64,000 nucleotides of DNA from Calditrichia bacterium (GCA_963712885.1 CAVQJT010000010.1:68249-132248); one strand, 5' to 3'; counted from the first letter of the stretch, positions 3,670 to 64,000 are shown. Notes: a model not told the origin generated them from the letters alone. Program-made: numbers and translations.

Positions 3670-4015
3670 TACGTTAAATATATTGTAACTAATTCTATAT
3701 TTCTGACATAATTAACGGTACGTTATAGTAGTTTATGTTACTGTTATTATTAAGCATAGAGACGATTCGGGACCATGAGTCTCGTGAAACGGGATCTCGC
3801 CCCGACTCATATCAAATTCGAAGCACGAAACTCGAAATCCGAAATAAATTCCAAACACCAAATCCCAAGCAAAATCCAAAATCTAAAATCATATCCAATA
3901 TTCAAAATAATCTTCAATTACCAATTACCGATTACTAATTACTCAATTTTTTGTCATTCTGTAGGAATCTTCCTTCGTATACATTCAAGAAAGCAGTAAT
4001 TAAAAAGGTAATTGT
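3586..4015. repeat. Copy 2 of the 430-bp direct repeat (partner of 492..918).
   Basis: Near-identical sequence. Both copies contain the A-rich AAATCC tract and the CCAATTACCGATTACTAATTACT heptad block. Confidence 0.9.
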
Positions 4016-4373
4016 CAAGTGCAGGGTGATTCCACCGGCTAGTGCAGAATTTATGCGGGTTGAAAGCCTGGTTGTTAAATGAATATATACTGGGAAGCTA
4101 ACTCCTCCCTTTATTTTATATAAAATTTGCCGTTATTATATTTTCCTTTGCACTTTTTATTTTAAATATTATATTCTTTCACATCCTACCTTATACTCAA
4201 AATGAGACAGACTTAGGTAAATTATTAAATACCGAAAAGCAAAAACAATAATTAATTAAAAATATAACTGCAAGACCAATGGTGTTGTATAAACAAATTA
4301 TATTTTATCGATTATGTTTTAAAAATCATGATGGTCAATCACGCTTTATGGACTAACCATGAAGGAGATTCAC

Positions 4374-4970
4374 ATGAAAATTTCACAGATGTTTAGTTTT
4401 ATCCTGATCATTTGTTTTTTCTCGGTGACTACCATATCTGCTCAAGGTCTTACGACCAAGGGATTGAAAGGCGGTCTCAGTCTGGCAAGTTTTATCGGTT
4501 CTGATGCCTCGATAGGGACTGTTGATCCCTCGATGGATGTAAAATTTGCGGTCGGCGGATTTTTGAATTTTGAAGTTAATGAGCAATTTTCAATCCGGCC
4601 AGAAGCATACTATTCATCCAAAGGGGCCAAATATGAGGAGGGGGGCGATAAACTGACTTTTACCATGAATTATATTGATATTCCGGTGCTCTTTGTTTTA
4701 AAGGCCGGTGACAATTTTGGGATTTTTGCCGGCCCTCAACTGGGAATTTATTTGAATGGGAAAATTAAGTCAGACGGTGCATCTGGAGATATCGAAAGCG
4801 ATAATGTAACCAGTCCTGAATTTGAACTGGTCTTTGGTGCGAATTATTTTTTTAATCAGTTCCATATCGACGCCAGATATGCAATGGGAATATCAAAGAT
4901 ATTCGATGTTTCCAGTAACGATGATGTAAGACATGGGGTCATTCAGATCCTTTTCGGAATAGCCCTTTAA
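4374..4970 (+). CDS. Outer-membrane beta-barrel protein of the OMP_b-brl_2 / PorT-like porin family.
   Basis: Signal peptide, alternating amphipathic beta-strands, aromatic-rich C-terminus. RBS AGGAG is 7 nt before the internal ATG at 4374, so the start was moved from 4359. Confidence 0.7.
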   Translation: MKISQMFSFILIICFFSVTTISAQGLTTKGLKGGLSLASFIGSDASIGTVDPSMDVKFAVGGFLNFEVNEQFSIRPEAYYSSKGAKYEEGGDKLTFTMNYIDIPVLFVLKAGDNFGIFAGPQLGIYLNGKIKSDGASGDIESDNVTSPEFELVFGANYFFNQFHIDARYAMGISKIFDVSSNDDVRHGVIQILFGIAL

Positions 4971-5344
4971 TTTAACAATCTTTTTCGAATCAGAAATTAT
5001 TTTCCTTCAGTCTTGTATCCGTTGGCGATACACTGAATTTACTATTTTACTCTCTATCTGAATACTTATATTCTAGTTCATCTTCTTCATAGTACGGTAT
5101 CCGACACATGTTCCAGTCATTAATTTTTGACCCTGCAAACAAACGACAGATCTTATTCTATTTATATGAGCAATTTACCGGAAGCCTGATGCCTATCAAT
5201 AGGGGCGACAGCATGCCGGATCGAATGACATTTTTTCTGAATTATTTGGTTCATGTGAAAACTTAATCTATTGATTTAATTAATGTGTAATAAATACCGA
5301 TAAGCCTGGAAGCTATCTTTAAATCGAATGCAAAAGGAGGTAAT

Positions 5345-6533
5345 ATGGTAAAGAAATTCATGCCATTTTTCATTTTTTGTAGTTCTATATTGGTCATCAT
5401 CGGAATCTTAAACGCGCAGGAAGGGAACACGGATTTCAATGATCTGGCAAAACGGCTTGTAAGTCAAAGTGCAAATGTCCAGGAAGGTGAGCACGTCCTG
5501 ATTTACGGAAGTGTGCGTGATATGGCACTAATGGAAGAGATTGCTCTTGAAGTGCGCAAAACAGGCGCCTTTCCGTTAATTCAGGTTGGTAGCGAACCAT
5601 TGAGTTGGCGGATGTTTAGTGAAACGCCTAAAAAATACGACAGCCAACCCCGGACATTGGGTCTTAAAATCAGCTGAAATATTTGATGTCCAGATCATGG
5701 TGAGCGTTGGTGATAACCTGAATCTGTTTGCCGAAGCCGATCCCGAACGGCTTGCGGCAAACGGCAAAGCATTTGAACCGGTGAATGCCCTTTATGTAAA
5801 ACGTAATGTCCGTGGTGTGTCTATCGGTAATGAGATGTACCCCACCAAAAATCTGGCCAAACGCTGGAATGTACCCTTTGAAAAACTGAAAAAAATGTTC
5901 TGGCAGGGAGTTACTGCCGATTATAAACAGGTCGAAGCAACAGGTATGCAATTCAGGAAAAAATTATCCACCGGCAAAGAACTTCATCTTATACACTCGA
6001 ATGGAACAGACCTTAAAATTAATATCGAAAATCGCCCGGTAATCGTAAGCGATGGAATTATTTCTCAAGATGATATGAAAGCCGGATATGCAGCGGTCCA
6101 GGTCTACCTGCCGGCCGGTGAGGTGATTGTTGCCCCGGTGCCTGGTACCGCCCAGGGAAAAGTCGTCATAGACCGGATGTTCTATTCAGGAAAGGAAGTC
6201 AACGGACTTACGCTGACCTTTGAAAATGGCAAACTGGTATCGATGACATCCGAATCGGATATTAGCCGTATCAAAGCAGATTATGATGCCGCCGGTGCAG
6301 GCAAAGAATCTTTCGGAGAAATTGATATAGGGATAAATCCGGATATCCAAATACTTCCCGACAGCAAAATGACATCCTGGGTACCGTCCGGGATGGTAAC
6401 CGTCGGAATTGGCAATAACACATGGGCCGGCGGTGATAACAATACCAGTTACGCATTGTTTGGACATATTGCCGGTTCGACGGTAAAAGTTGACGGAAAG
6501 ACTCTGGTCGAAGACGGTAAATTAAATCTCTGA
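5345..6533 (+). CDS. Secreted M29-family aminopeptidase (AmpS/aminopeptidase T-like), split by a frameshift near 5620-5680.
   Basis: Two overlapping ORFs, 5345..5677 and 5619..6533. The N-terminal part (LAKRLVSQSANVQEGEHVLIYG) and the long C-terminal part resemble M29 peptidases. Strong RBS AAGGAGG. Confidence 0.55.
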
Positions 6534-18082: not shown

Positions 18083-18657
18083 TTATGTATCCAGAAACGA
18101 CTTGATGAAATACCGATGGATCCGGACATCTTCGGTTAGTTCGGGATGAAAAGTGCAGACCAGAATCTTTCCGGCAGCAGCCATTACTACATCCTGGCCG
18201 TGACGGCCGAGAATTTTTACGTCCCTTCCCATCCGGGTGATTTTTGGCGCCCTGATAAAAACACCTTGAAAATGATCGCTTTTACCGTTTAAGAATATGT
18301 TGATATCGTCATAGAAAGATTCTTTTTGCCGGCCATATGCATTACGTTCAACACCGATATCGATAAGACCTAATGGGGCTTGCTCCAATCTGTCCACGTC
18401 GCTTGCCAGAATAATTAAACCTGCGCAGGTACCCATTATGGGTTTGCTTTGAGCGAATTCTATGACCGCCTGATCGAATTTATTTAAGGCGAACAATTTT
18501 TGTAGCGTGGTTGATTCACCACCAGGAATGATTAAACCATCCACATCCTGCAGGCGCTCAGGTACCCGAATTTGTACGGCTTTATGCCCCAAACGATTGA
18601 TGACTTGCGCATGTTTGGCAAAGTCCCCCTGAAGGGCAAGCACACCTATATTTTTCA
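18083..18657 (-). CDS. pdxT: Pyridoxal 5'-phosphate synthase glutaminase subunit.
   Basis: IGVLALQGDF..GLIIPGGESTT..GTCAG..HPE motifs. Start trimmed to a TTG just after the pdxS stop. Confidence 0.85.
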
Positions 18658-38165: not shown

Positions 38166-38895
38166 TTAATTATTATTGCCCATAGCATATATTATGCCGC
38201 CAAATAGATGATTCAGGAAAAGCGTGTCCTGATAACTTTCTGGTGTGTGGCCTCCGGCCGTATACCAGGCACGCCCCTTGCCTACATCGTGATACCAGCT
38301 GAGAGGGTGATCCGCACCATTCCCCCCGCCTGTATATGAAGATTCATCAAGTGTGATCAATACCTTTATTCCCGGATCGAGCGGGGTTCTGAAATTATAC
38401 CACTCGTCTGTCCGTTCCCAGATATCCGGTAAATGTCTTGTCGACGGATGGTTTTTATCCCGTATAATCAGTCTGGCCGGCTGGACTTTTGGGTGATCCC
38501 TAAAATAGGTCCCCAGGAGTTTGCCATACCATTCCCAATCATATTCCGTATCACTGGCACCATGGAATCCCGGCGAAACCACCGCCATTTTCAATATATG
38601 TCCGCAGCGCCTGCTTCCCACCCGGACCAAGGACATTGCCACTGGTGTTCAGAAATACGACCGCGGCATAATTTTTCAGGATCTCATCGGTAAAAATCAG
38701 TGAATCTGCCATCGAATTCACAAGAATATTCTGTTCTTTGCCAAATTTTTTAATGGCGATCAGAGCCTGCGGAATACTCTTGTGGATATATTCATTGGTT
38801 TTAGTAAATACGAGGATGGATTGTGGTGTCTGGTCTTTTGTGCAACTCATTATCCAGATCGGAAAGAAAATAAGCATTAAAGATCGGCGCGTCAT
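38166..38895 (-). CDS. ThuA-like (trehalose-utilisation, class-I glutamine-amidotransferase-like fold) secreted protein, frameshifted near 38600.
   Basis: ILVFTKT..AVVFLNTSG..ENGGGFAGIH in ORF 38551..38895; ITLDESSYTGG...WYTAGGH in ORF 38166..38642. Confidence 0.5.
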
Positions 38896-40800
38896 CTTAC
38901 GAATAACATTTTTATTGAATGGGATAACTTTCCGTCAACCGTCATCGTACAAAAATACATACCTGAAGAAGATATAACGCCCTGCCCGTTGCGTCCGTCC
39001 CATCCAACCCGTTTTGTACCGGCCGGCTCACGGCCGTTGGACAGGGTGATGATCATTTCGCCGGATGTATTGTAAATTTGCAGGACAACATGTGCGGGTT
39101 TGCCGATACTAAATGTTATGATCGTGGATGGATTGAACGGATTCGGATAATTTTGTCTGAGGACATAAGATCGGGGTGCCTCAGGCACGCTCTCCCCATC
39201 GATCGAGGCAGCAGGCCCGAGTCGATCTTCCAGTTGTGCCAGATAAAGCGATCTGGGCTCCAGACCTGCCTGATTTGTACCTTCGATGTAGCCTTCCGGC
39301 ACCGGAAAAGGCGCCGGTGGGCTGATTCCGGTTATATCACCTGAGCAGCCGATGGCATAATTTTGTCCGGTCGGCGGTTTCTGGATGGTCAGGTTGCCTG
39401 CTGCGACATCACAATTCCAGGCCACACCATGTACCAGCGCCCAGCCGTGGCTTGTCCCGTAATGTCCCCGGTTGTATAATCCCAAGAGACGAGGATTATA
39501 GCCCGGACGGGGTCCATCCAGTTCAACGACATTGTCATATAAAAGTGCCTGACTCCATTGGCGATGCCCCTCGCTGCTGGCATATGCTCCTGATGAGGTG
39601 CAGTCCAGAAATACACAACCGGAAGTCCAGCTGGTGCCGTTTGACATATAATGATGCCTTCCATTGGTGGCATGGCAATCCCTGACCAGAATCTGCTGTG
39701 ACGCATTATACAGACTGGAAATTGTACATGTTGCCACCGTCGATTGGTGCAACCGGATCCAGTGCCTGGCAATTCTGAATGGTAATGCGGGTGGCGGTAT
39801 TCGTTCTGAAACCGGACAGTCCAAAATGCAGTACGGTGCAATTGCGTACCCAGGCATCCTCGATCTGAAAGAGATCGATGGCGTTCCAGGCATGATTCTG
39901 ATCAACACCGCCGGCGGTTACAATATCAATCCGCAAATTTTCAATACCGATGTGATTCCGGATTCCCAGACGTCCGTAACGATAAATAAAGGATTGTGAC
40001 AGTGAACGAATCAAATGGTTGTATACGGGAACATCTATGGTGATGGTATTTCCCTCGATGGCAGTAATATACCGGTTGAACACGACAGGCTGGCTGTTTA
40101 TGGCCCAGGGCAGATCCACACCGGGTTCTGCAGCCGGGAGATACCAGAATGTACCTCCGGTATCAACCGCAGATAACCAGGCTGCTGTGCAGGGATGATA
40201 AATTATAATATTGTCACCAACATTATAACCTGATGCATCCGCAACCTCAAAGGTTTTTTCACCAATCAATACCGTATCAGAAATAATGTTAACGTTCGAA
40301 CCGGCATCACCGTCGGACCATTTGGTTTGTGCCCCGCCGCCGGCGACTAAAACCGTCCTTTTTGTTGGCGAATTACCGGTCGCTTTCAGGATCGTATTTG
40401 TTAATGGGTTGTCACCATCTCCCTCACCTCTCAGAACAACACCATCGAAGCCAATTTTAATTGTACCGTTGATTTCATACTCCCCTGCTTTAAGCAATAG
40501 TGCGCCATGAAACCCGTTGCTGTCCGGGGGCATCATGGCCACTTCAAACAGGGCATTTTGAATCAGGGTCGTATTGTCGCCTGAGACGGGTTCAAGGATC
40601 TTAACAACGGGTACGTCCGGAATCCTTTCGGCTGAATTTTTATACCCGGCATAACTGAAATCAGGGATGCGGTTGCCGCTGGAATCGGCAACGTAAACCA
40701 GTTTCTCATCATTGCCGCGATACACGATCTTCGACTCCCAGGCAGACAGATTTGTGCCAAAGACCAGTACCGCGAGGCAAAATAGTATTACATTTTTCAT
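38892..40800 (-). CDS. Right-handed beta-helix (pectate-lyase-fold) secreted protein with a T9SS C-terminal domain; frameshifted near 39700-39900.
   Basis: Signal peptide and beta-helix repeats (NCTVLHFGLSGF..) in ORF 39706..40800. C-terminal ORF 38892..39908 ends with LRQNYPNPFNPSTIITFSI... Confidence 0.6.
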
Positions 40801-43713: not shown

Positions 43714-44037
43714 GTTTGTACTTTTCCTTATATTACCTTCTGTCTCAAATGTTATACAGTAGGAATCTTCCTTTGTGTAGATTCAGATTTTGAACGAAAG
43801 AAGATCCTTCCAGGATGACCGGGTGGTATATTTTATCCAAAAATCTCAGTGCCAGTTGTCATTGCGAGGAAATCGCCGGAGGCGGCTGACGAAGCAATCT
43901 ATTGTAAATATTTACATAATGAGATTCCTTCGCTACGCTCGGATGACAAAAATACATATTTTTCAGAAGCACCAACCAAGAAAAAAATAGCCGAATAGCA
44001 TAACGCCTATCCGGCTATTTAGGATTAACCCACCAAT

Positions 44038-45490
44038 TTATTTTACAAACATCATCTTTTTGACCAGCGTATTGCCGGCAGTTTGAAGCCGATAAAAATA
44101 TACACCCGTAGCCGCATTTGTGGGCTGCCAGTTGACCGCGTGGGTACCGGCATTTCTGAAACCGTTGGCCAGCTGCGCAACACGGGATCCGGTAATATCA
44201 TAAATTTCCAGGATCACATCTCCCGGTTCAGCCAAGGAGAACGCTATCGTTGTTGAAGGATTGAATGGGTTCGGATAGTTCTGGTACAAGACTAAATTCA
44301 TTTGGAGTCAGGTTATCGGTATCAGATCCAATGCTGACCATTGGATCCACCCAGCGCAGATCTCCCAGAGGCCCACCGTCATGCCCTTTTCCGTAAGCCG
44401 GGGATCCTGGAGTCAGTGTATAATCCATATTGACGGCATCGGCATAAAGCGGATCGAATCCATAAATCGTGGTTGTATCGACTGTCCCTCCTTTTACACA
44501 ACTGATACGGCCTGATTCCGGAGAAGGTACTCCAAAAATCATATTTATGGTATCTACGTGACTTATGAATGAACCAACACCCTGCAATTGAACAACATAA
44601 TCCGCCCGCTCGGCACGGGTGAGTTTGGGCAGGCGGCTGTTGGTGACAAGAACATCCCTGAAGATTGCTCCGGCATTATTCTTAATATAAGCCATACGGG
44701 TTCCGGAATTATTTACCGTGAGATTCTCGATCAATACATAAGCGTCTTCCGTTTCGGTATTCGTATCGGCATAAAACCGGATACATTCGGAAGAGATATT
44801 TGTGAACGTACAATTACGAACAATCAAACTATCCACGACCCTTTCGACGGCATACTTTTCTGTTTCACTCATACGTATCGCTTCATCACCTATGTCATAA
44901 AAAGTGCAATTTTCCATGCGAACAGTACCCGCTTTTAATATGGGTTCGCCGGATCCGGGGGCAAGAAAATACAGGGCATGGCCTTCGGCCTCTCCTTCCT
45001 TATCACCGTTATCATAAAAATTGCGGAATACACAATTCTTGACAATGATATTCAAACCTTCCTTCGCGTAGACCCGCGGTACCTGAGAATCAGGTCCATG
45101 ACCTAAACGAATACCGTGTTTGAGGCCGCGTGTGGCTGCCGGGTGCATGCCATCGAAAATGATACCTTCAAAGGTCACATCATCATGACAGCGAAACATC
45201 TCAATAGTTCCGGAATCGGCATCACTATGTGTAAGGATTGGCATTTCGGCCAGCCCCGGCTTCGCCATGATAACGACCGGCTTTTTGATCTGAAAATAGA
45301 CCGTATCGGATGTTGTATAGACACCGCCTGAAGTGGAAAGCAATAAGGTATCGATATTGTTACTGGCTGCATAATCCAGGGCCAGTTTGAAGTCATATAT
45401 GTCCTCCACTTCAATTTTGCTGGCAAGGACCGTCTGTCCGATAAAAGCAAACATTAAGATAATCAGTAACGGTAACAAAATTCTCTGCAT
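44038..45490 (-). CDS. Beta-helix T9SS cargo protein, frameshifted just before the C-terminal domain near 44230-44300. Family unassigned.
   Basis: Signal peptide, NCTF/NCVF beta-helix repeats. C-terminal motif GFDPLYADAVNMDYTLTPGSPAYGKGHDGGPLGDLRW is shared with the giant protein at 60031..64000. Sorting domain is in ORF 44038..44301. Confidence 0.6.
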
Positions 45491-45613
45491 TTGTTCTCTC
45501 CTTTTATTGGTTCTGATGAATATTTGTTATTTGATTCAATTTCTCAGGCAAAAGGTTAAAGGCAAAAGGATAAAGCTGAATTACAGCATAACCCTACCTT
45601 TTACCTTTTGCCT

Positions 45614-47122
45614 TTAAAACGCATATGTAAACGCCACTGCAAAATTACTCAGACTCTCAGTCACATAGTTCGTGTTGGAATAATACGAGTCATAATACTT
45701 CAACTTCTGGTATTCATACCCCAGATCAAGCCGGCCGAACCCAAAAGCATCCAGGCTGGCTCCAAATGTGTAGCCAGTGGCTGAAGGTCCGGCATCGGTT
45801 ATAGCGGAACCGTCAGGTATAAAAGTTGCCGGGATATCCCGGTAACCTGCCATGAGCGTCAGAAAATCCAAGGCCTGGTATTCAGCTCCGAATCTCAATA
45901 TGTGCTGATCCGGCCACGTGCGCTCGGTGGGCGCATCCCGATCAAAGGAAAACTTGCTTTCGCTCAAGCCCGTATACTGATAATCAAAGGCGATCCTGAA
46001 CCGGTCAACGGGATTTACGATTATGCCCACGGTAAATGATAAGGGTACATCCATTTTGTCAATGCCACTGAGGTTATTTGTTGAAGTTTGCCCCAGTGTA
46101 TCAAGGTCAGTACGGGTGTAAGCCCACTCTCTTTCCAGGATATACGGTAATATAAGGTTTACGCCAAGAGAAATACGTGATATTTGTCCCTGAATCCCTA
46201 GATTGAAATTTGTAGCGCTGAATTTGGAGGTACCACCGATAAAGATGTTGACCGTATCATAGCTAAAGCGGAACCGGTTGTCTTTGGCGATATCGAAATT
46301 ACCTACCCGTACGAGGGATTGGTAGTCATCGGTCTCTCCGGATATGAAATTCACGCCAACACCTACGTTCAGATCTTCCGTTATATTATAGGCAAGCGCA
46401 CCGGCGATGCGGTCCGAGGAACCTTGCCGGTCGCGTTCAAAACGGGACCAGCGGAATGCGACCGTATCGGTTACGACCCGTGGCACCCATCCATATTCAT
46501 CAAATCCGATATGGGGATCCAGATAGGTATCATTACGATCATAATCGTACACCTTAAACCGGTTATATGCTGCAGATACAATAAACTTTTGTTCTGCCAG
46601 TTCAACCGGGACGGCGACAGCAATATTGTTCAGACCCAGTTTATCCAGGGTTTTTTGCCAATCGGCTGCTTCCTCCGTATAGGGCTCCAGACCCATTACA
46701 GGCTCCTGGACAATGTAACTCGAATCCTGGGCAAGTTCATAATCCCATACCCCGTTATTCGCCGGATCTGGTATATATAGCCCTTCGAGATAGAATGCCA
46801 GGGTCCAGTAGATCCGGTTTGGCCGGTAATTCTGATTTTCACGCCAGAGATGCGTGGAGGCATTTGCGGCTACGGAGATCTGAAATTTATCAATCGCTGC
46901 CAGTCCGGCCGGATTATAAAATATACTGGATACATCACCCGTATAAGCCGTAAAGGCGCCGCCCATGGCCATTGCTTTTACCCCGGGATCATTCTGGGTA
47001 AAAAATCCCTGAAAGGACAGATCATCCCCGCGATGCTGCGCCATCGCCAAAACCGGTATCAGAAGAAAAACAGCAACAGAGTGACAAAGTGACAAAGCGA
47101 CAAAGCGACTGAAATCTCTCAT
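45614..47122 (-). CDS. PorV/FadL-like outer-membrane beta-barrel (large paralog).
   Basis: Signal peptide. N-terminal motif AMAMGGAFTAYTGDVSSIFYNPAGLA typical of the PorV/UPF0164 family. C-terminal ...FTYAF. Confidence 0.6.
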   Translation of the reverse strand: MRDFSRFVALSLCHSVAVFLLIPVLAMAQHRGDDLSFQGFFTQNDPGVKAMAMGGAFTAYTGDVSSIFYNPAGLAAIDKFQISVAANASTHLWRENQNYRPNRIYWTLAFYLEGLYIPDPANNGVWDYELAQDSSYIVQEPVMGLEPYTEEAADWQKTLDKLGLNNIAVAVPVELAEQKFIVSAAYNRFKVYDYDRNDTYLDPHIGFDEYGWVPRVVTDTVAFRWSRFERDRQGSSDRIAGALAYNITEDLNVGVGVNFISGETDDYQSLVRVGNFDIAKDNRFRFSYDTVNIFIGGTSKFSATNFNLGIQGQISRISLGVNLILPYILEREWAYTRTDLDTLGQTSTNNLSGIDKMDVPLSFTVGIIVNPVDRFRIAFDYQYTGLSESKFSFDRDAPTERTWPDQHILRFGAEYQALDFLTLMAGYRDIPATFIPDGSAITDAGPSATGYTFGASLDAFGFGRLDLGYEYQKLKYYDSYYSNTNYVTESLSNFAVAFTYAF

Positions 47123-47188
47123 TTCTAATCCCTAATTACTAATTACTAATTAATTTTCTGCACAGGGCAAGATCACCCGCTCTGGTAT

Positions 47189-48238
47189 TTAATCAATCGC
47201 GAAACCGATCGAAAACCGGTGCACCGGATCCAGAAAATCCCCATAATCACTATAGGCGTAATCGACCCGGTACTGATCATAGGCCAGGCCGAAACCGGCG
47301 GAAAAACTTTCCGAATCATAATTGATCTTATATCCGCCGCGCAGGAATAGGATGTTCTGGAATCCATATTCCAGACCGATATTATACTGCTGATCGAAAT
47401 CCCGGGGTTGTACCATATCAAAAGCCACCAGTAATGTCTGATTCTGTGAGTCAAAAATCATGCTTTCGCTGGATCCGATCAGATACGTCGAAATGCCGAT
47501 ATTAAAGGTCTGAGGAAGCGGATATCCTTTTCCACTGTACTTCTGATAATAGGTTACATTGTTAACGGGGTCGTATCTTGCCAGATCAACCTCATCATAA
47601 AATTTTACTTCCGGACCGAAATGACGGATGACAGCTGAGATTCTCAGCGACCGGAATCCCGTATCATACAGCAATCCGCCATCGAAAGCGACATTTCCGG
47701 TGCTTCTCACACCCAGATCTTCATGGGCATATTTTACAGTCAGACCAAAACTGAATTTTTCGGTCAAGCCGCGGGCATAAGTCAAGCCAATCACCGTGGC
47801 GCGCGGTTCGATCACCTCGCCGGTATATCCGAGATAAGTGTCGCCGACGAAACCCAGGGCATCCACCGTTGTCACTTTTATCTCCCCGGCATCGGTCCGC
47901 AAGCCCTGCAATCCAAAAGTACCGATACCCGGCACCGTATAGGCCGCTGAGATGGCAGTGTGGTAAATATCCAGGAACCAATCAAGATAAGCGGCTGAAA
48001 AATCCATATTTTTTACACCTACAATAGCAGCCGGATTGTAAAATAATCCTTCAGAATTATTGGCAACTGCGGTAAACGCCTCTCCCATCCCGGCTGCGCG
48101 CGCATTTGTGGTCACCTTCAGAAACTGAAATGAGGTGGTACCTACTTTTTCGAATCCCCATACCTGAATGGAGCCAATCAGTATTAAAACAATAATGGGT
48201 ATGCTGTATCTTTTTCTAAGTGACATGTTTTTCCTCAC
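47189..48238 (-). CDS. porV: PorV-family outer-membrane beta-barrel (T9SS shuttle-protein family).
   Basis: ARAAGMGEAFTAVANNSEGLFYNPAAI matches the PorV/LptO N-terminal signature. About 350 aa. C-terminal aromatic residue. Confidence 0.6.
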   Translation of the reverse strand: MRKNMSLRKRYSIPIIVLILIGSIQVWGFEKVGTTSFQFLKVTTNARAAGMGEAFTAVANNSEGLFYNPAAIVGVKNMDFSAAYLDWFLDIYHTAISAAYTVPGIGTFGLQGLRTDAGEIKVTTVDALGFVGDTYLGYTGEVIEPRATVIGLTYARGLTEKFSFGLTVKYAHEDLGVRSTGNVAFDGGLLYDTGFRSLRISAVIRHFGPEVKFYDEVDLARYDPVNNVTYYQKYSGKGYPLPQTFNIGISTYLIGSSESMIFDSQNQTLLVAFDMVQPRDFDQQYNIGLEYGFQNILFLRGGYKINYDSESFSAGFGLAYDQYRVDYAYSDYGDFLDPVHRFSIGFAID

Positions 48239-48245
48239 TACCCGA

Positions 48246-50492
48246 TTATTTAATTACGATGAATTTTCCGCTGGTTTGGTCCCCTTCCGGAGTAGTAACA
48301 ACATAAAGATACAGCCCGGAAGCGATTTCCTGATCATTACGGGTTACCTGAAACCATTCTGTTGTATAAACCGGATCATTATGTTCGATGGTTTCCACCA
48401 GTTGCCCGGAATAAGTAAATATCCTGATGGTAGCCCTTTTGGGTAAACCATAAAATCCGATTTTATCGGCTGCACCGGCGGCACCACCAAATCCTGATTC
48501 GATTACAAACGGATTTGGTACAACAAAAACCTCCCCCAGCTGCTCAACGGCACCGACATTTTTCGCATGTGTGGTAATATTGGTCCTGCCACTCTGAATC
48601 CAATTCTCATCAACGGATGTTACCGAATAGTAGCGTGTTTCGCCGATCTTGAATACCGGATCATCATCAAAATATTCATAAATACCGTCTGTGTTGACAT
48701 CACCTACTTCAAGTGAATCTAATAGCTGCCATGGACCCATTCCCGCATCGCTGCGATAAATATAGAATTTACGAAGCTCCCCGGTCAGACGTGGATGGGT
48801 AAAACTTTCTACCTCACGATTCCAGGTCAGCCGGATCCGCCCATCGGCGGTATTAATCACCTCTATGACCGGTGCCGGAACCGGTGCCGGGAGCTTATAA
48901 TCACCATTGCTGGGATGATCTTCCGGCCATACCGGCGCAACCGGCTCATATCCCAGGTATGCTTCAAATGCTTTTTGTGTAACCTGGGTAACGGTCCTGA
49001 CCTCAGAATTGACATAATCGGGATAACCAAAATCATCGAGATATTTGTTGGTCAGGATCGTACCGTCCTTTGCCTTCACCTGCCGGTTCCAGCTGGGGGT
49101 GTTTGACCACTGGGTAAGCGTTTGACCGCCCTCCAAGCGTTTTCCTGCCTGGGCACCATACCCGACCACCTCCGCCAACGCATATTTCAGCCGGTCTCCC
49201 GGATTCAAGGTATAAGGACCAAATACAATGTGTTTTTGTCCGGCGTCAACACTTTGACGATAGTTATAGGCCGCTCTCCCGATCCAGGTTTCTGTTGGAT
49301 GGCTGGGGGGTTCAGGCCATGTTGTACTGCCGTCGCTGTAAACCCCGCTCCAGCGTTTGTTCGGATTGATGCTTTCTACTTTCATCTTACTGCTGCGCGT
49401 ATTACCGGTACTGACCTTATTTGACCAGGGCTGTTTTATGTGATTATTTTCATCCAGTTCATAGTATTCTCCAAAACTGGTTCGGAGAACATCGCTCACT
49501 TCTGACTCATTTTGCGGACTGTCGATCGTATCAACAAAAGCCAGATGATTGACGTCATAATATAGCACGGCAAATCCCGGTGCTTGCGGTGAGCATAATC
49601 CCCCGCCATTTTTACCGGTGTTGGCGAATTCCTGAAATAACTCCTTGTTCGGCTCAGGTTTTGCCCACAAGGATTCGTCGGTAATATTTGTCCGGAGATT
49701 CATATTAAAGGACAACCAGTAGTCAGCATCCCAGAAATTGTTCTGATCCCCACGATAGATACCGCTCTCGTATTTCCATTCCTGGTAGTGACGCTGATAG
49801 CCATACATGGAAGGAGCAAAACCGTAGATAAACAGCACCATAAAATCCTTTAGTGTACCCGTTTGTTCAATGGTTGCCGCATTTCCGTCCGTATCACCGG
49901 TGTATTCCAGCTCATACTCGTAGATGATCATGTCATCATAATCGGGATGGCTCCATGCCCGTGATACCCGGGTGACCTTGATGCCCAGGGGCGTTGTCCA
50001 GGAAGCGGTGATAATTTCTTCCGCCTCATCGGGATCATAATCGGGATTCAGGGTACCGTCAGGCAGCAATGGAAAATTTTCAACTTCTTCGATGAAATAC
50101 GGGAAGCTCCAACGACCGATAATGACCTCAGATCCGCCGCCCTCTCCGACACCACCGCACAGGGCATAAATGCGTTTTTCCATCCCCGGCTGGCCGTCCG
50201 GATTGGCAGCCATATACAGCCCGCCACCGAGTAAATTATGCTGCCCGCTGTAAACGGTTCCCTGCACAATGGTTTTTGACCGGGAAGGCCACTCCATTAA
50301 GGGCAAATTGGTCTTATTACCTTCATCCCCGGTTGTCCAGGGTCGGCCAATGTCACCTGAATTAAAGACCGTTTCATGCAGCATACCACGATCATGCACC
50401 CTGAATTCAAGCAGCTGAGGTGTGACCACAGAGGTTAAAACTAAGACCAGTACGAGAACGGATGAAATTTTTATATGTTCTGAGACAATCAT
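48246..50492 (-). CDS. Secreted 748-aa protein of unknown function with an FN3-like domain and a T9SS C-terminal domain.
   Basis: Signal/TM at N-terminus. FN3-like block (RIRLTWNREV...FYIYRS...YYSVTSVD). C-terminus is VFVVPNPFVIE...ATIRIFTYSGQLV...GLYLYVVTT. No recognisable catalytic motif. Confidence 0.55.
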   Translation of the reverse strand: MIVSEHIKISSVLVLVLVLTSVVTPQLLEFRVHDRGMLHETVFNSGDIGRPWTTGDEGNKTNLPLMEWPSRSKTIVQGTVYSGQHNLLGGGLYMAANPDGQPGMEKRIYALCGGVGEGGGSEVIIGRWSFPYFIEEVENFPLLPDGTLNPDYDPDEAEEIITASWTTPLGIKVTRVSRAWSHPDYDDMIIYEYELEYTGDTDGNAATIEQTGTLKDFMVLFIYGFAPSMYGYQRHYQEWKYESGIYRGDQNNFWDADYWLSFNMNLRTNITDESLWAKPEPNKELFQEFANTGKNGGGLCSPQAPGFAVLYYDVNHLAFVDTIDSPQNESEVSDVLRTSFGEYYELDENNHIKQPWSNKVSTGNTRSSKMKVESINPNKRWSGVYSDGSTTWPEPPSHPTETWIGRAAYNYRQSVDAGQKHIVFGPYTLNPGDRLKYALAEVVGYGAQAGKRLEGGQTLTQWSNTPSWNRQVKAKDGTILTNKYLDDFGYPDYVNSEVRTVTQVTQKAFEAYLGYEPVAPVWPEDHPSNGDYKLPAPVPAPVIEVINTADGRIRLTWNREVESFTHPRLTGELRKFYIYRSDAGMGPWQLLDSLEVGDVNTDGIYEYFDDDPVFKIGETRYYSVTSVDENWIQSGRTNITTHAKNVGAVEQLGEVFVVPNPFVIESGFGGAAGAADKIGFYGLPKRATIRIFTYSGQLVETIEHNDPVYTTEWFQVTRNDQEIASGLYLYVVTTPEGDQTSGKFIVIK

Positions 50493-50525
50493 AGAAACCT
50501 CATACCTAATTGGTTAATCCTTCAA

Positions 50526-53368
50526 CTAAAATTTAAAAATCACACCTATACGATAATGGCGCGGTTCATTGGCCAGGAGATAAATATCCTGACGTGTCAC
50601 ATAGGGGGCATAAAAATCTTCGATCAGGATATCCTCCTGATTTTCCAGCGTTGACCAGCGTACAACGTTGCGGTCGTTGTTAAATGTGCGCGAGTAACTA
50701 TAAGTAAACTCATTAAGCAGATTGAATCCTTCAAAGTAAAGGGTCATGTTTGTTTTGGCGATATCGAATCCTTTTTCGATACGCAAGCGTAATTCGTTCT
50801 CGCGCGGCGTGCGCTGATTGAACTTGAGTCCCTGTCCCGATTCATCCCAGGTGTATGGCCGACCGGTGGCATAGCGATAGGTCAGGCTGACAGAAATATT
50901 TTGAAAGATATCTGAACCGCGCGGGGTAAGGTAACGCATATTAAACACGGCTTTGTGTGTACGATCGTAATCGAGGTAGACATCTTCAGGAAATCGTCCG
51001 CTTAATCCCTCATCATCAGCATTTCCGGATTCGGTATAAATCGGAGCAACATCAAGGTTATCGGCATTGGCACTCTTACCAGTGGCGGCCTCATAATTAT
51101 AGCGGATATACCCTCTGATCGTACCGATATTTCGCTCCAGACTGACGTGAAAACCTTTGATATCGGCATAATCGAGATTAACATATGTCGCATAGGTTGT
51201 TCCGCTGGTGTTTTGATAATAGGCGGATTGAATGAGATCTTTCACATCCTTGTAGTATGCGCTGACATCCAGCTGTAAACCGGTCGTCACCTTATGTACG
51301 ATCCCAATATCATATGCCTTTGTATTCTCCGGCTTAAGTTCAGGATTGCCCAATGTCAGAATGCTGACTGCCCCTTCATCCACATTGATCTGATTATAAT
51401 AGAGCTGATTAAAATTGGGCCTCTGGGTAAATGTGCCATAGTTGAGATGGAATACAGTCAGTTCTGATACAGGGAAAGGAGAATCCGATGCGGGGCTGGA
51501 TGCGGGTATAGAATTTGGTATCGGAAACCGCATTCGGATCAAGCAGAGGATTAAACTTATTAATATAGTAGGTCGTATTTCAGTCTGATAAAAGTCGAAC
51601 CGCATCCCGATATTGGCGATCATGCCCTCATATTCCATTTTATCCTGCAGATACACCGCGCCCTCAAAGGGATTTGCGCTAAATATCAGATCCTGGATAC
51701 TACTGGGCCCTGTGACATTATTCTGATATTTTACATCGAGTCGATAAAAATAAAATTGCAGGCCCGCTTTCAGCAGATTAAACCGGTCGATCTGGCTGGT
51801 TAAGCTGCCGGATGTATAATAAGTTATGGTTTTTCGGTTACCGCGATCATCACTCAGGCGACCTACCCGGTGATTGGAGGGGCCTGTATAGTCCACCCAG
51901 TTGCTACCGTTGCTGTAATCTTCCAGCACCTGATCATCTTTGAGCAGATCAATCCGGTCCTCTTCTTTGGTATTCAGAATACTCAGCGTAAAATCTGCAT
52001 AAGTGGATGGCGTAAAAACATATTTATATTCCAGACTGCCCTGCCATGTACGGTTGGTTCGTTTGATTACACTGAAGGTACGATCGAAAAGCCAGCGCCA
52101 CCAATTGCTGTCAAGGACATTCTCAAAATTGTAATCATAAACAAAAGATAGTTTAAACTTTTGATTTGGTGTGGGATTGAATGTAAGGTTACTCATGAGC
52201 TGCCGCTGCAAATCCGGCTGGGCCATTGGAACTTCGGGATACACAACATTCTGGCGTACTGCCATAAAAATATTTGTATTTTTAGCAATTGGCCCACCGG
52301 TGGTGAAATCGACCCGATAATCCATTGTATTGTCGTACTCCATGCCCAGTTCACGAACCGATTGCATCCATAATAACCGTCCCAGATTGGCAATTTTTAA
52401 CGAATCCTCGCGGGTTAACGGATTAGGTGGCCAAACATCGCGCGGCGGGAGGTACTTTGTGACACCATAACCTCGATCCCATAATGGTTTACCGGGATCA
52501 AGCGGATTTTCTTCCAGCCATTCCTCCGGGTTCATCAAAGAACCGGCAAAAATCAGATTGGCAGGATCATAGGGACTGCCATCTGTTCCATCAGCCCAAC
52601 TTTTGTAATAAGGAAGTGTACCGGATATTTCAGCACGGGTCTGCCAGACAGATGTCCCTTCCTTTGTAACCATATTGACCACACCGGACTGGGCATTACC
52701 ATATTCCGCACTGAATCCCGACGTGTATACTTCAACCTGCTCGAGTCCCGTTACAATCGGATTAAATGCGCGTCTGTTGTCAAGGGGATTGGTGATGGCC
52801 GTACCGGCCATTAAATAAGAGGACTCCCCGACACGACCTCCGCGGAAATGGTCGTCGACCACATCTGCCTGCAATTCAAGAATATCCGTAAGATCCGCCA
52901 CACCTGCAATGCTCTGAACTTCCGATATATTATACACCTGTTTGGTGGCCGTAAGATCTTTCTCAACAGTGGTTTCGGTATAGGCGGTTACAACAATTTC
53001 CTCGGTTTCCAGCAATTGCTCATTCATTTCATAATTGATTTCTGTGGTCTTATCAACAAACACCTTTACCTCGGTTTTCATCATTTCGGTGTAACCGATA
53101 TACGACTCGCTTTAACCGTATAGGACCCTGGTCGCAGATTTAGAATAAAATATGCCCCATCCAGATCGGTGGATGCACCCGCCGGGATATCCAATGGTAT
53201 CTCACGGTAATTTTCCCACCGGGAGATGACGATCACGTTCGCCCCCGCAAGCGGTTCACCCGTTCGCTGATCGATTACCACCCCGGCAATTTTACCTGTG
53301 TTACCGGCATGCAGAGTGGAAAGAAATAAAAACAGGGAGATCAAAATAAAAATTGAAATCGCTTTCAT
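50526..53368 (-). CDS. TonB-dependent outer-membrane receptor with an N-terminal carboxypeptidase-regulatory-like domain. Frameshifted near 53085, and possibly again around 51480-51600.
   Basis: N-terminal ORF 53081..53368 (GKIAGVVIDQRTGEPLAGANV...SYTVKA). Plug domain and 22-strand barrel in the 852-aa ORF. Terminal aromatic ...GVIFKF. Confidence 0.7.
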
Positions 53369-53510
53369 AGTGGCAAAGCTCCTTTAGATAAGCGATGGAA
53401 TTTTTAGGAAAGGCACATCAAAAACGTCAACCTAATTTGTATCATGTATTACAAATTAAAATAATCATTAAATACTTTTCTGTCAAGCATTTTATTTGTC
53501 ATAATGGCTG

Positions 53511-60030: not shown

Positions 60031-63000
60031 TTATTTGATCATCATCATCTTCTTAATGTCACTGAATTCTTCTGATTGAATGCGATAAAAGTATAATCCG
60101 GTAGCAAGTTCCGGATGATTAAAGACCAGTTTATGTTTACCGGCCGGCATCTGTTGATCGACGAGTGTAAATATCTCGCGGCCAAGAATGTCATAAACTT
60201 TAATCGTCGTTTTGCCTGCTTTTTTCAGATCAAATCGAATCGTCGTCTGTGGGTTGAACGGATTCGGATAGTTCTGATACAGGGTATATTCGGTTGGGAT
60301 CCCATTGAGGTCTTCGATAGCATCTACCATCTGGAATTTTACACCAACCGTTTTATTTCCATCCATGGTAATGGTCTGCGGGTTGACAGCACCGGTCAGA
60401 TCTCCCGTCCATTCAACGAACTCATAGGAGGTATCCGGTACAGACTGTCAGGGTAACTACCTGGTCCGGATCAAAGGTTTTACCTACAGGAGCCGGGTCA
60501 AAAACAACTTTTCCTTCACCTTCAATGGTTACCGCCACCAGAAAATGCGTTGGTGTGTTGGTTGCCCATCTCAGATCGCCTGCCGCTTCACCATCGTCGC
60601 CAATATCGTAAGCATGGGAGGCCGATAAAAGCGTATAATTCCTGTCCCCCGGTGCTTCGAACAGCGGATCGAATTCCCAGATCAGAGTAGTATCCAGTGT
60701 CGCACCGACTTCCAGGTCAATATTCGTACTGGCATTATTGATAACCAGATGCGAGGCTGATGATGCTTCACCGTACAATCTGATCACATCGTTATGACGT
60801 GCAGACAGGAACATCTGATTTGTAATAATGCAGTTCTTTATCTCAGCATTCAGTACACCTTCGGGATAAAGGACGCGGTAATTCTGATTCCAACTCGCAG
60901 AGTCAATCGTGCAGTGATTGATCATGAGCACCATGTCATTATTATCACGCACTCTCACAGCTTCCCGACCTGATCGGATAAAGGTTGTGTTTTCAATTCT
61001 GGCATACTTAACCGTGTTGGGATCTCTCATATAGATGCCTTCGTTTTTGCATTCCCTGAACATGCTGTTGGTAATGATCAGTGTATCCACAAATGACCCG
61101 GCATAGATCTTTACCCATACCTCGCCTGAATTGTAGATATAACAATCGTTAATCCTGATCTCTGTTTTTACCGTATCGTCATCTGTCCTTAAAGCATACT
61201 TGGCATCATACATTTCAATACCATCCAGTGAGAGACTGGTACCACCGACTCTGATCTGGAAAATACCATCTGAATAACCCAGATCCGGATTACCTTCAAT
61301 TTTTGGCCGTTCCGCAAGCCCTTCTTTCGCCATTATGGACAACGGAAAATCAACATCGATGTTCTCATGTGCCTTATATACGCCACCCGAGGTGGTCAAT
61401 ACAATATGTTTTACCTGACTGTTGTTGCGGGCAAAATCAACAGCCTCAGCCAGGCTTTGGGTGGTATCGATCTCAAGTATGCCGCCGGGGACAGAGATCT
61501 CACTGAAGGTAACCGTTACATTCACATCACTGTCCATTGTCACGATCGCCGTGTCATTCGCACTGGTAATATCACCAGACCAGCCGTCAAATTTAAAACC
61601 ACCAAGCGGCATGGCAACCATCGTTACTACAGTGGAAGAATCGTAACTTTCATAGTAGGGATAGGGTTCAGGATCGTAGCTGACCTCTCCTTTACCTACG
61701 ACCGTAAGATTGATCTTAAATTGTGTTTCAATCGGTGTAAAATTGGCGGTAACGCTTAGGTTTGATGTTACCGATATGGTATCCGGATTATTTGATCCGG
61801 TAAGATCACCTGTCCACTCGGTGAATACCATCGCAGACGTATCAGACACGGCGGTCAGGGTGACATCGGTACCATCATAATAGGAAAATATACCGGCCGC
61901 GCTGTCGGCCTGAGCTGGCGCCGGTGCCAGATCCACATGACCGATCCCGATTGCCGAGACCGTCAGGGTAAACAGATCCTTCAAGGGGACAAAGAAAACT
62001 GTAACGGTCAGATCGGAGTTCATGGTGACCGTTCTTACCTCTGTATCCGGCGGAAAAGCAGCCGGTTCCCACTTGGATACCTTTGAATCAGCCCCAGGTT
62101 TTGCGGTCAGGGTAACAACCGTTCCCGGATCATAATAGGGGCCGGCCGGACTTGCCTCTACAGTTCCGTTTCCGTCCGTAAGAAGCGTTAACAAAAATTG
62201 ATTCGGATCTGTTTCCCAGCGCAGATCGCCCATCGCTTTGCCGTCATCCGCAGCACCACGGGCCGGGGATGTCAGGGCAAGACGATAATCACCACTTGAC
62301 GGATCCTTGTACAGCGGATCTTCGTCGATCATACCTCCACCGATTGAAGACGATTCACCTGTATCGACCGGTCTTACATTAAAGGTATCGGTGTAGGAAA
62401 TTGTGGATGTGCCGTAAAGATCAACGGATTCCGTATTCGTACCCATTTGATTTGACATGATGCAATTCGTAATGGTGGCATTGGTGACATACAGGTCGCC
62501 CCCGTCCATACGGATTACACGATCGTTCTCAATGGTTGCAGTTGAATCCATGGTAACATGATTGATAATTACTTCTGGATTATAGCCAACCGCAGCACTA
62601 CCGAACTGTATCGCCTCACGTCCGGTATTGGTAATGGTAACATTTTCAAACAGTACGTAGTTCATTGCAGGGCCGTCACCGCCAGTATCATAGAAATTAA
62701 ATCCTTCCCGTAAAGCATTTCTGGCAATTGAGTTTGTTACAATACATGTATCGACAACAGTTTTCAAATAGCCCCGTACAAAGTTTTCGGTATAATCGTG
62801 AAAATAACAGTCATCGACCTTCAGAAACATGTAGGTGGAATCACCGGCAATCAGACGGACAGCCTGTTTGGAATAGGGAGTTCCGCTGCCATCGCCGCTA
62901 CCATCAAACTCCAGGCCGATCAGGGTTAGACTACCGCCGGAGAGCACCTCGAAATTACGGGTGTTGGAACTACTAGTTGGCCGAAGATTCCGGATAATTG

Positions 63001-64000
63001 GTCTCTGGGTCAGCCCTTCCCGCGCTCGGATTGTAAGAACTTTATCAATTTCAATCTTATCGAACTCTTGCGTGTATACGTAAACACCACCATTGTCCAT
63101 CAATTCAAGAATATCACCACTCTCGGCTGCCTGTACGGCATCATAAAGCGTATTATCCCCGGCATACACCTTATGAACGGTTGGCCCCTGAGCGTACGGA
63201 TCCCAGCGCAAATCGCCCATGGCTTTGGCGTCATCCGCCATGCCAAGTGCCGGTGATCCTTCCTGAAGTGTATAGTCAAGATTAGCCGGATCTGTATACA
63301 ACGGATCTCCACTGATCATACCGCTGCCGATGGCTGCAGATTCGTTTAAATCGACAGGCCTTACATGAAAGGTATCACTATAGGAAACCGTGGAGGTACC
63401 GTACAACTGAAGCGAATACTGGTAAGCACCCATCTGATTGGATATAATGCAATTTTTTATGGTTGCATTTGCAACAGCTATGGTGCCGGGGTTTAACCTG
63501 ATCACCCGATAATCACCCCCCTGGGAGGTGGAATCCATGGTGACATGGTTGATAATCACTTCCGGGTTATATCCTACATCAGCACTGCCGATCTTTATCG
63601 CTTCACGGCCGACATTTGTAATCGTAACGTTCTCAAACAGGGCGTAATTCAAAGCCGGCCCACCACTGTTGGTGTCATACAGCATCCAGCCTTCCCGTAC
63701 AGAGCCGGTACTGACCGAGTTTTGAATGATAAAAGTATCGACGACGGTTTTGGTATAGCCTCTGAGGAAATTTTCGGTATAATCATGAAAATAGCAGTCG
63801 AATATTTTCAGGACCATTGAGGTGGAGTCGCCGGCAGTGAGACGAATTGCCTGTTTGGAATATGGGGTCCCGCTGCCATCGCCGCTACCGTCGAATTCAA
63901 GACCGATTAGGGTCAGAGTGCCCCCGGATAGCACTTCGAAATTACGTGTGTTGGTACTCGAAGTCGGACGAAGACTACGGATAACCGGTTTCTGTGCCAA
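60031..64000 (-). CDS. Giant multi-module beta-helix T9SS cargo protein; 1192 aa are visible and the N-terminus lies beyond the window edge. It has three beta-helix modules plus Ig-like spacers. A frameshift near 60430 separates the body from its sorting domain.
   Basis: ORF 60422..64000 is open to the window edge. Modules 1 and 2 are about 70% identical at protein level. The C-terminal domain in ORF 60031..60366 is LYQNYPNPFNPQTTIRFDL.... Confidence 0.65.

Follow-up and report, generated by a model that had tools for sequence, protein, structure and literature searches.

A stretch of 64,000 nucleotides (nt) from a Calditrichia bacterium (GCA_963712885.1, CAVQJT010000010.1:68249-132248), referred to here as the window, was analyzed over its full length, and all coordinates given below are positions within it. 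Within 45614..53368, four co-directional open reading frames (ORFs) were confirmed on the minus strand in the order TonB-dependent receptor, protein X, PorV-like barrel, and FadL-like barrel. The receptor (50526..53368) exhibits a signal peptide, a CarboxypepD_reg N-terminal extension, a plug, and a barrel, and is read as two ORFs in the present sequence. Protein X (48246..50492; 748 aa) follows after 33 nt and combines a signal peptide with a galactose-mutarotase-like β-supersandwich of ~500 aa, an FN3-like domain at ~540-645, and a predicted C-terminal type IX secretion system (T9SS) sorting domain (CTD) at ~655-748. The third gene (47189..48238), 7 nt further on, encodes an outer-membrane barrel of the PorV/PorQ family with a PorV_fam match, which is 349 aa long from a GTG start or 345 aa long from the ATG at 48226 used by NCBI, the latter leaving a spacer of 19 nt. 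The fourth gene (45614..47122), after 66 nt, encodes a 502-aa FadL/TodX-family outer-membrane barrel with a Toluene_X match and an N-terminal FYNPA hatch motif. The original prediction, made from the window's DNA alone, had proposed these four genes as a SusD-less glycan-capture operon with spacers of 8-45 nt; the gene limits and shared direction were confirmed, and the spacer range was not.

Sequence searches on X returned matches to its sorting domain only and none to a known enzyme family, a match that would have counted against the original prediction. Its body matched nothing in Pfam or NCBIfam (at E≤10, Pfam gave only a weak CHU_C hit), a profile search of the PDB produced 0 matches at E≤1, and a Pfam scan of 23 divergent members of the X family detected CHU_C in 5 and nothing else. 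Database entries name X only as "hypothetical protein" or "T9SS type A sorting domain-containing protein". The N-terminus, MIVSEHIKISSVLVLVLVLTSVVTPQLLEF, comprises a signal peptide without a cysteine and hence without a lipobox, so that X does not qualify as a lipoprotein. In the AlphaFold2 model (predicted local distance difference test, pLDDT, 84.7; predicted template modeling score, pTM, 0.86), the large N-terminal domain is followed by two β-sandwiches in the terminal half of the protein, namely the FN3-like one at ~540-645, for which Pfam fn3 gave no match, and a terminal one at ~678-746; PNPF and terminal GKFIVIK motifs are present in the sequence. Of the two domains that had been anticipated for the 748-aa protein, the FN3-like one is thus seen in the model, and the sorting domain is recognized marginally. 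The model is almost entirely β, unlike the α-helical TPR-like fold of SusD, and no SusD-family match was found in Pfam for X or for any other window ORF of at least 400 aa. Foldseek yielded no global match of the whole model in the PDB; the top structural matches were the non-catalytic N-terminal domains of glycoside hydrolase (GH) enzymes, at 5-12% identity.

The sorting domain of X was recognized by TIGR04183 (T9SS type A) with 24.0 bits against a cut-off of 23, while PF18962 (Por_Secre_tail) gave no match and PF13585 (CHU_C) reached 17.8 of the 27 bits needed. Its conservation was compared with that of a second CTD in 13 loci harboring clear orthologs of both X and the CTD-bearing PL6 polysaccharide lyase (PL). 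Relative to the window, the CTD of X was 68% identical and its body 66%, whereas in the lyase the CTD was 34% identical and the catalytic domain 62%. A CTD acting as a mere cleaved export signal would be expected to drift as other CTDs do; that of X does not, which argues for an extra constraint and agrees with a specific interaction that persists after export, for instance if the CTD docks on the barrel encoded beside X.

Of the two barrels, the 349-aa protein carries the motif ARAAGMGEAFTAV...FYNPAA and the 502-aa protein the related AMAMGGAFTAY...FYNPAG (in SIFYNPAGL), so that the PorV signature ascribed to both genes is indeed found in both. The family assignment extends to the first one only. 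The 349-aa barrel scored 180.3 bits with NF033709 (PorV_fam; cut-off 90) over residues 34-347 and stayed under the equivalog cut-offs of PorV (NF033710, 63.6 vs 250), PorQ (NF033711, 75.2 vs 220), and PorV2 (43.5 vs 325). The 502-aa protein passed PF03349 (Toluene_X/FadL) with 45 bits against a gathering threshold of 29.7 and remained below the cut-offs of PorV_fam (37 bits) and BamG (NF053685, 46.8 vs 250); by these hidden Markov model (HMM) cut-offs, the second barrel is a FadL-family and not a PorV-family member. The AlphaFold2 model of the 349-aa barrel (pLDDT 89.4) found F. johnsoniae PorV as its best Foldseek match (8gl6_F, E 3.4e-16, template modeling score, TM, 0.71; 6h3i_F, TM 0.69), ahead of FadL (TM ~0.53), TodX, and BamG. 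The entry 8gl6 is a substrate-CTD-bound translocon structure containing PorV, and PorV was also the sole significant PDB sequence match of this barrel (E 5.5e-15). We considered and rejected the possibility that the barrels are the organism's only PorV/PorQ, on account of their sub-equivalog scores and the multiple copies of the cassette; PorV-like genes travel with X in well over 100 loci, as expected from the original view of them as dedicated paralogs rather than housekeeping porV/porQ.

The receptor scored 78.8 bits with TonB_dep_Rec_b-barrel and 43.2 bits with CarboxypepD_reg, and PF13620 and PF13715 place the CarboxypepD_reg-like extension before the plug, both in the N-terminal piece of the window receptor and in intact orthologs. 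The SusC/RagA model TIGR04056 (cut-off 368.25) gave 16.7 bits for that N-terminal piece, did not list the intact orthologous receptor of locus L008 at E≤0.001, and attained its best score, 58.7 bits, on a more divergent receptor (locus L081), covering the N-terminal extension and plug only. Judged by these scores, the receptor is not of the SusC/RagA type. The lack of SusD had originally been set against the rule that, in Bacteroidia, such a transporter is invariably followed by a SusD-family gene. That premise does not apply here: the receptor is not SusC-type and the nearest relatives are Calditrichota, KSB1, Ignavibacteriota, and Marinimicrobia rather than Bacteroidia, and therefore the absence of SusD is no anomaly.

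The four genes lie among catabolic genes that occupy the minus strand from 31936 to 64000. The encoded enzymes comprise two PL6 lyases (one with a T9SS tail), two PF05426 Alginate_lyase proteins (PL5-type), a heparinase II/III-like (PL17-type) lyase, GH88-like and GH2 proteins, a PfkB kinase (KdgK), and a KDPG (2-keto-3-deoxy-6-phosphogluconate) aldolase (Eda), and several T9SS-CTD proteins are encoded in the same region. The transporter gene runs in the same direction as the neighboring genes for breaking down one glycan and for catabolizing sugar acids, as in a polysaccharide utilization locus in the broad sense, and the same set recurs in orthologous loci. By its predicted gene content, the region from 31936 to the window end is an alginate/uronate utilization locus.

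A scan of one genome per species detected relatives of X in 236 stretches, from which 80 loci were fetched and compared. The order receptor, X, PorV-like, FadL-like on one strand was conserved in 72 of the 80 species-level loci, with median spacers of ~18 nt, and the remaining 8 were cut by contig ends or masked; the conserved synteny that had been proposed as a check was therefore found in relatives. A PL6, PL5, or PL17 homolog (at least 200 bits) was located near the cassette in 56/80 loci. The record titles of these loci refer to Calditrichia, Ignavibacteriales/Melioribacteraceae, KSB1, Neomarinimicrobiota, and Fidelibacterota, and the nearest homologs of X come from metagenome-assembled genomes (MAGs) labeled Caldithrix/Calditrichota, KSB1, Ignavibacteriales/Melioribacteraceae, Neomarinimicrobiota, and Fidelibacterota, with no sign of Bacteroidia among them. 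Several cassettes can occur together: L003 and L068 share one contig, L045, L066, and L075 belong to one MAG, and L124 and L137 hold two each. Locus L036 additionally contains, beside a canonical cassette, a PorV-like gene that immediately precedes a further TonB-dependent receptor, X being absent from between the two (1748-5947, minus strand).

A profile search with X against 1.84 billion representative proteins extended the family to 89 clusters (50% identity) at E≤1e-30 and to 1589 at E≤1e-10, many of the weaker ones matching the FN3 and CTD part only. Divergent full-length relatives were recovered, such as P0175, which aligns to the alginate branch with 28% identity over 630 columns and an hhalign probability of 100%. 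The most conserved block of X, AEEII.S.W.T..GITVTR...AWSYPDYDD.II.E, is common to the branches found in alginate, sulfatase, and ceramidase/GDPD loci. The context of the divergent branch was inspected in five look-ups and 73 metagenome loci, where a PorV-like gene came directly after 61 of 86 full-length X genes and a receptor before 55 of 83, the exceptions to the trio being mostly second X copies a few kilobases downstream. The partner barrels tested from this branch all passed PorV_fam (160-172 bits) and none attained the PorV, PorQ, or PorV2 equivalog cut-offs. The FadL-like gene, which follows the PorV-like gene in 72 of the 80 fetched loci and is conserved in the alginate-type branch only, is absent from divergent-branch loci. 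The neighbors also differ: sulfatases, PhyH dioxygenases, and LacI regulators occur among them in place of alginate enzymes, and the 129 neighboring ORFs of marine loci comprise 18 ceramidase-like proteins, 17 CTD (Por_Secre_tail) proteins, 13 GDPD proteins, and 11 sodium:solute symporters (SSF). This content suggests that the divergent branch takes up lipid-derived or head-group substrates rather than glycans. As judged from these ceramidase/GDPD/symporter loci, the module is not glycan-specific, in departure from the glycan-capture role first assigned to it.

The usual gene order in the divergent branch is a small outer-membrane protein (OMP) barrel, receptor, X, and PorV-like, often followed by a DUF6785 protein, a GWxTD protein, or a second X. 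The small barrel (OMP_b-brl type, ~205-245 aa) lies directly upstream of the receptor in most divergent cassettes (e.g., L081 6090-6707, L083 1562-2272, and most of L090-L156) and occurs neither in the alginate branch nor in the window. The trio is repeatedly followed at short distance by large DUF6785/DUF6784 proteins (L081 14875-16782, L084 13875-15881, and many L09x-L15x loci), as do GWxTD-domain proteins. A second full-length X is located 2-4 kb past the PorV-like gene in L102/L103, L106, L111-L113, L119-L121, L125, L127, L130-L133, and L145, and L083 and L092 have two extra X genes each. Throughout the marine loci L086-L158 (e.g., L102, L106, L111, L120), neutral-ceramidase-like, GDPD, and sodium:solute symporter genes are the commonest flanks, accompanied by T9SS-tailed proteins.

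The genes of the cassette also diverge together. Across 109 non-identical cassettes, the Pearson correlation of pairwise distances was 0.98 for receptor and X, 0.91 for X and PorV-like, and 0.94 for receptor and PorV-like, values that fit duplication and transfer as a unit and that count as consistency rather than as proof.

Taken together, these observations lead us to favor, with slightly better than even confidence, a reading in which X is exported by the T9SS, tethered through its CTD on its own PorV-family barrel beside the receptor, and acts there as a substrate-capturing or lid subunit. Export is suggested by the signal peptide of X, by the match of its CTD, and by the presence of further CTD proteins in the operon. 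The CTD would then be kept and docked on the co-encoded PorV/PorQ-family barrel, holding X in the outer membrane next to the receptor, as suggested by the 1:1 pairing of the genes and by the unusual conservation of the CTD. Substrate would be captured by the body of X, composed of supersandwich and FN3 domain, which would present it to the receptor or cap the receptor; the sole grounds for this step are the fold, the constant position of X next to the receptor, and the tracking of locus content by X clades. In the window, the substrate would be alginate fragments released by the CTD-bearing lyases of the locus, which the receptor would import with TonB energy. X would thereby fill the role of SusD or of other transporter lids without being a lipoprotein, and the receptor/X/PorV-like trio probably does, with different parts, the job that SusC/SusD does in Bacteroidia. 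Speculatively, the additional barrel of the FadL family, which only the alginate branch possesses, may serve as a tether for another CTD protein of the operon or join the same complex. The original prediction of a T9SS-delivered surface partner with a dedicated PorV paralog remains the best-supported reading, apart from the shuttling role that it gave to the barrel: a stable anchor, by analogy with PorQ-PorZ, fits the conserved CTD of X better. For the window itself, we put it marginally above an even chance that the cassette is the outer-membrane uptake module of the alginate locus and represents a class of TonB-dependent transporter cassettes, widespread but so far undescribed, from phyla outside Bacteroidia within the FCB (Fibrobacterota-Chlorobiota-Bacteroidota) group. 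A literature search that included a 2026 review of glycoside transporters found no description of the cassette, which is no proof that it is unpublished.

Several points weigh against this assignment. The CTD call on X is marginal by HMM, the contact of X with receptor or barrel is presumed, and the co-divergence was computed without an unlinked control, jointly inherited genes being correlated anyway. In many marine loci, solo X copies without a barrel or receptor of their own are found 2-4 kb downstream. The receptor gene of the window is disrupted as sequenced. Moreover, X is ~60% identical between phyla with many invariant charged residues, unlike SusD proteins, and such conservation could mean a catalytic site or a recent horizontal transfer of the whole locus. 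Finally, Melioribacter roseus (Ignavibacteriota) is reported to have a canonical SusC/SusD/SusE operon, Mros0761-0759 (PMC3534657); therefore, the cassette is not simply a replacement for a missing SusCD pair, and the two systems may coexist within Ignavibacteriota.

In an alternative that we regard as improbable, X represents a new enzyme family at the cell surface, its supersandwich providing, for example, lyase, epimerase, or hydrolase activity, and pre-processes the substrate at the mouth of the transporter while the barrel merely anchors it. The very strong conservation of X, in which dozens of residues (Asp, Glu, Arg, His, Trp, and Tyr) do not vary, and its location in a locus full of lyases would be compatible with such an activity. 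The top conserved block, however, is common to branches residing in alginate, sulfatase, and ceramidase/GDPD loci, and a block shared among chemically unrelated loci argues for a substrate-independent role, in an interface or in the core, rather than for one chemistry. X also tracks the receptor and the barrel and not any enzyme family, and the parts of GH enzymes that its fold resembles are the non-catalytic ones.

To a second alternative we assign a similarly low probability: X and the PorV-like barrel could form a locus-specific T9SS sorting or attachment sub-complex, analogous to PorQ-PorZ, through which the remaining CTD proteins of the locus (lyases, β-helix protein) would be processed or attached, X having no role as a substrate-binding partner of the transporter. 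The C-terminus of X matches that of PorZ (NF052228, 30 bits), PorZ (5m11) is among its Foldseek matches, and PorQ is the best-scoring equivalog for the PorV-like barrels (75-87 bits). PorQ and PorZ are a known stable pair (PMC5562754), and CTD proteins abound in the operon as well as in marine loci, as the 17 Por_Secre_tail proteins among 129 neighboring ORFs illustrate. The similarity to PorZ is nevertheless confined to the sorting domain, X lacking β-propellers of the PorZ type, and its most constant neighbor is the receptor immediately upstream rather than CTD cargo. Several cassettes per genome, each with a different transporter, would likewise be hard to explain for a sorting machine.

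The state of the receptor gene bears on whether the cassette works in this particular genome. The receptor had been described as a single ORF at 50526..53368, which the sequence does not uphold: a 95-aa piece (53081..53368; signal peptide and CarboxypepD_reg) and an 852-aa piece (50526..53084) lie in different frames, and within the latter a stretch of ~100 nt (~51584..51481, ~34 residues) goes out of frame before the frame is restored, frame 2 reading orthologous sequence there. With intact orthologs as queries, tblastn mapped residues 7-94 and 92-948 to two frames of the receptor region. Orthologous loci, including the closest one, L159 (X 92% identical), carry the receptor as one intact gene of 948-963 aa, and a DNA alignment to L159 located the extra bases of the window, two near 53106 and one each near 51584, 51580, and 51481. 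Insertions of 1-2 nt relative to intact orthologs split at least five window genes, and none of these insertions lies in a homopolymer run; besides the receptor, the genes include a β-helix CTD gene near 44290, a 640-aa gene near 39713 (39706..40800 and 38892..39908), and an M29 peptidase gene near 5650 (5345..5677 and 5619..6533), the last being ~40 kb away and outside the locus. Because this far-off peptidase gene is split alike, a locus-specific receptor pseudogene is less likely than assembly error, and the indels probably reflect errors of assembly or consensus rather than receptor-specific decay. That the locus is a decaying pseudogene cluster here, with the conserved cassette working in relatives only, is the least probable of the alternatives. 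In its favor, the receptor contains at least three small insertions that are either uncompensated or made good locally, and two further genes in the locus are frameshifted relative to intact orthologs. The same type of frameshift in the distant peptidase gene, the intactness and high ortholog similarity of X, both barrels, and most lyases, and the fit of scattered 1-2-nt insertions with assembly or consensus error in a MAG speak against it.

Downstream of the FadL-like gene, the probable operon continues with a fifth minus-strand gene (44041..45490), which encodes a β-helix/DUF5123 protein (Pfam Beta_helix and DUF5123) with a T9SS CTD and is the gene frameshifted near 44290; its intact ortholog has 475-481 aa and carries Por_Secre_tail. 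Most loci that reach far enough continue the unit with this β-helix CTD protein, behind which lies either a PL6 lyase or a large protein with DUF5123. Directly after the gene, a terminator-like hairpin with a 14-bp stem followed by a T run (43985..44020, minus strand) provides weak evidence for an end, and a promoter-like site (TTGACA, 17 nt, TATTTT; 53458..53486, minus strand), a consensus match only, lies ~90 nt upstream of the receptor start codon. These two sites suggest a five-gene transcription unit spanning 53368..44041, a limit put no more strongly because a promoter and terminator scan of the region gave site counts no higher than in shuffled controls.

At the other end of the locus, 60422..64000 encodes a very large DUF5123 and Flg_new_2 repeat protein that runs off the window, and whose L159 ortholog has at least 1402 aa, DUF4957, and a T9SS tail; in many loci, this protein is found past the cassette where others have the PL6-CTD lyase. 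A ThuA-family ORF (38166..38642) spans only profile positions 84-209 of 209, while its L159 ortholog has at least 241 aa and runs off the locus end; a further indel or a wrongly placed start probably accounts for the missing N-terminus of the window ORF. The overlapping ORFs at 18083/18660 were also considered as a frameshift, a candidate that was rejected, as they are separate PdxT and PdxS genes.

Beyond the window, we raise tentatively, at a little less than an even chance, that the cassette represents a general, previously unrecognized nutrient-uptake architecture shared by several non-Bacteroidia phyla of the FCB group, namely Calditrichota, KSB1, Ignavibacteriota, and Marinimicrobia/Fidelibacterota (by protein and MAG labels also Latescibacterota and Gemmatimonadota), in which a subunit would stay bound for good to a PorV-family barrel of its own by a CTD that is not cleaved. 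Such an architecture would solve independently the problem for which Bacteroidota have SusD-type surface lipoproteins, and it would serve alginate, sulfated glycans, and, in the ocean, apparently also substrates derived from lipids. The dominance of Bacteroidota in polymer degradation depends centrally on TonB-dependent transporters that have surface partners. Tools for predicting polysaccharide utilization loci use the SusC/SusD pair as their marker and are hence blind to equivalent systems elsewhere. If the trio is an uptake unit, it would offer a genomic marker for utilization loci in abundant, mostly uncultured phyla of sediments and oceans, such as Marinimicrobia, Calditrichota, and KSB1. 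It would further imply a new role for the T9SS/PorV family, the permanent tethering of a transporter subunit rather than the shuttling of cargo, and X would define a large and strongly conserved family of uncharacterized proteins.

Among known systems, the cassette resembles SusC/SusD (RagA/RagB) in that a large TonB-dependent transporter with a CarboxypepD_reg extension is followed by the gene of a putative surface partner, the pair lies within a substrate-specific degradation locus, several paralogous pairs occur per genome, and the clades of the partner track locus content. It differs in each component: the receptor does not get beyond 58.7 of the 368 bits that the SusC/RagA model requires, X is all-β (supersandwich, FN3, and CTD) with no α-helical TPR-like fold, no lipobox, and a T9SS sorting domain, and a PorV-family barrel is present as an obligatory third gene. 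In Bacteroides, BtuG on BtuB and XusB on XusA are β-propeller lipoproteins that act as lids of TonB-dependent transporters and capture the ligand. X is likewise a β-rich, non-SusD protein, predicted to be at the surface and encoded beside such a transporter, but it is built on a supersandwich with a T9SS domain and a dedicated barrel instead of a lipidated propeller. The supersandwich itself recalls the N-terminal domains of GH15, GH65, GH94, and GH116 enzymes, to which X has no sequence-level relationship, and, unlike these enzymes, X has no catalytic (α/α)6 domain.

The closest parallels for the pairing of X with its barrel are found in the T9SS itself, where CTD-bearing proteins are kept at the surface in two sub-complexes, PorU:PorV and PorQ:PorZ (Glew et al. 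2017, PMC5562754). Here too, a FadL-like barrel of the PorV/PorQ family is paired with a CTD-bearing, putatively surface-exposed protein, the CTD of X resembling that of PorZ and the barrel being nearest to PorV. The cassette barrels, however, are paralogs that fall short of the equivalog cut-offs for PorV and PorQ, neither propeller nor peptidase domains occur in X, and the multicopy pair adjoins a TonB-dependent receptor in catabolic loci, with retention of the CTD presumed. It has also been reported that type B CTD proteins bind cognate, adjacently encoded PorP/SprF-like barrels proposed as surface anchors, as in SprB-SprF and PG1035-PorP (Gorasia et al. 2022, PMC9143113). The cassette shares with these the adjacency of a predicted T9SS cargo gene and the gene of a dedicated outer-membrane barrel, whereas its barrel is of the PorV/PorQ family, the CTD of X is marginally type A with CHU_C/type B below the cut-off, and, in contrast to the known type B cases, which involve no transporter, the pair is joined to a TonB-dependent receptor.

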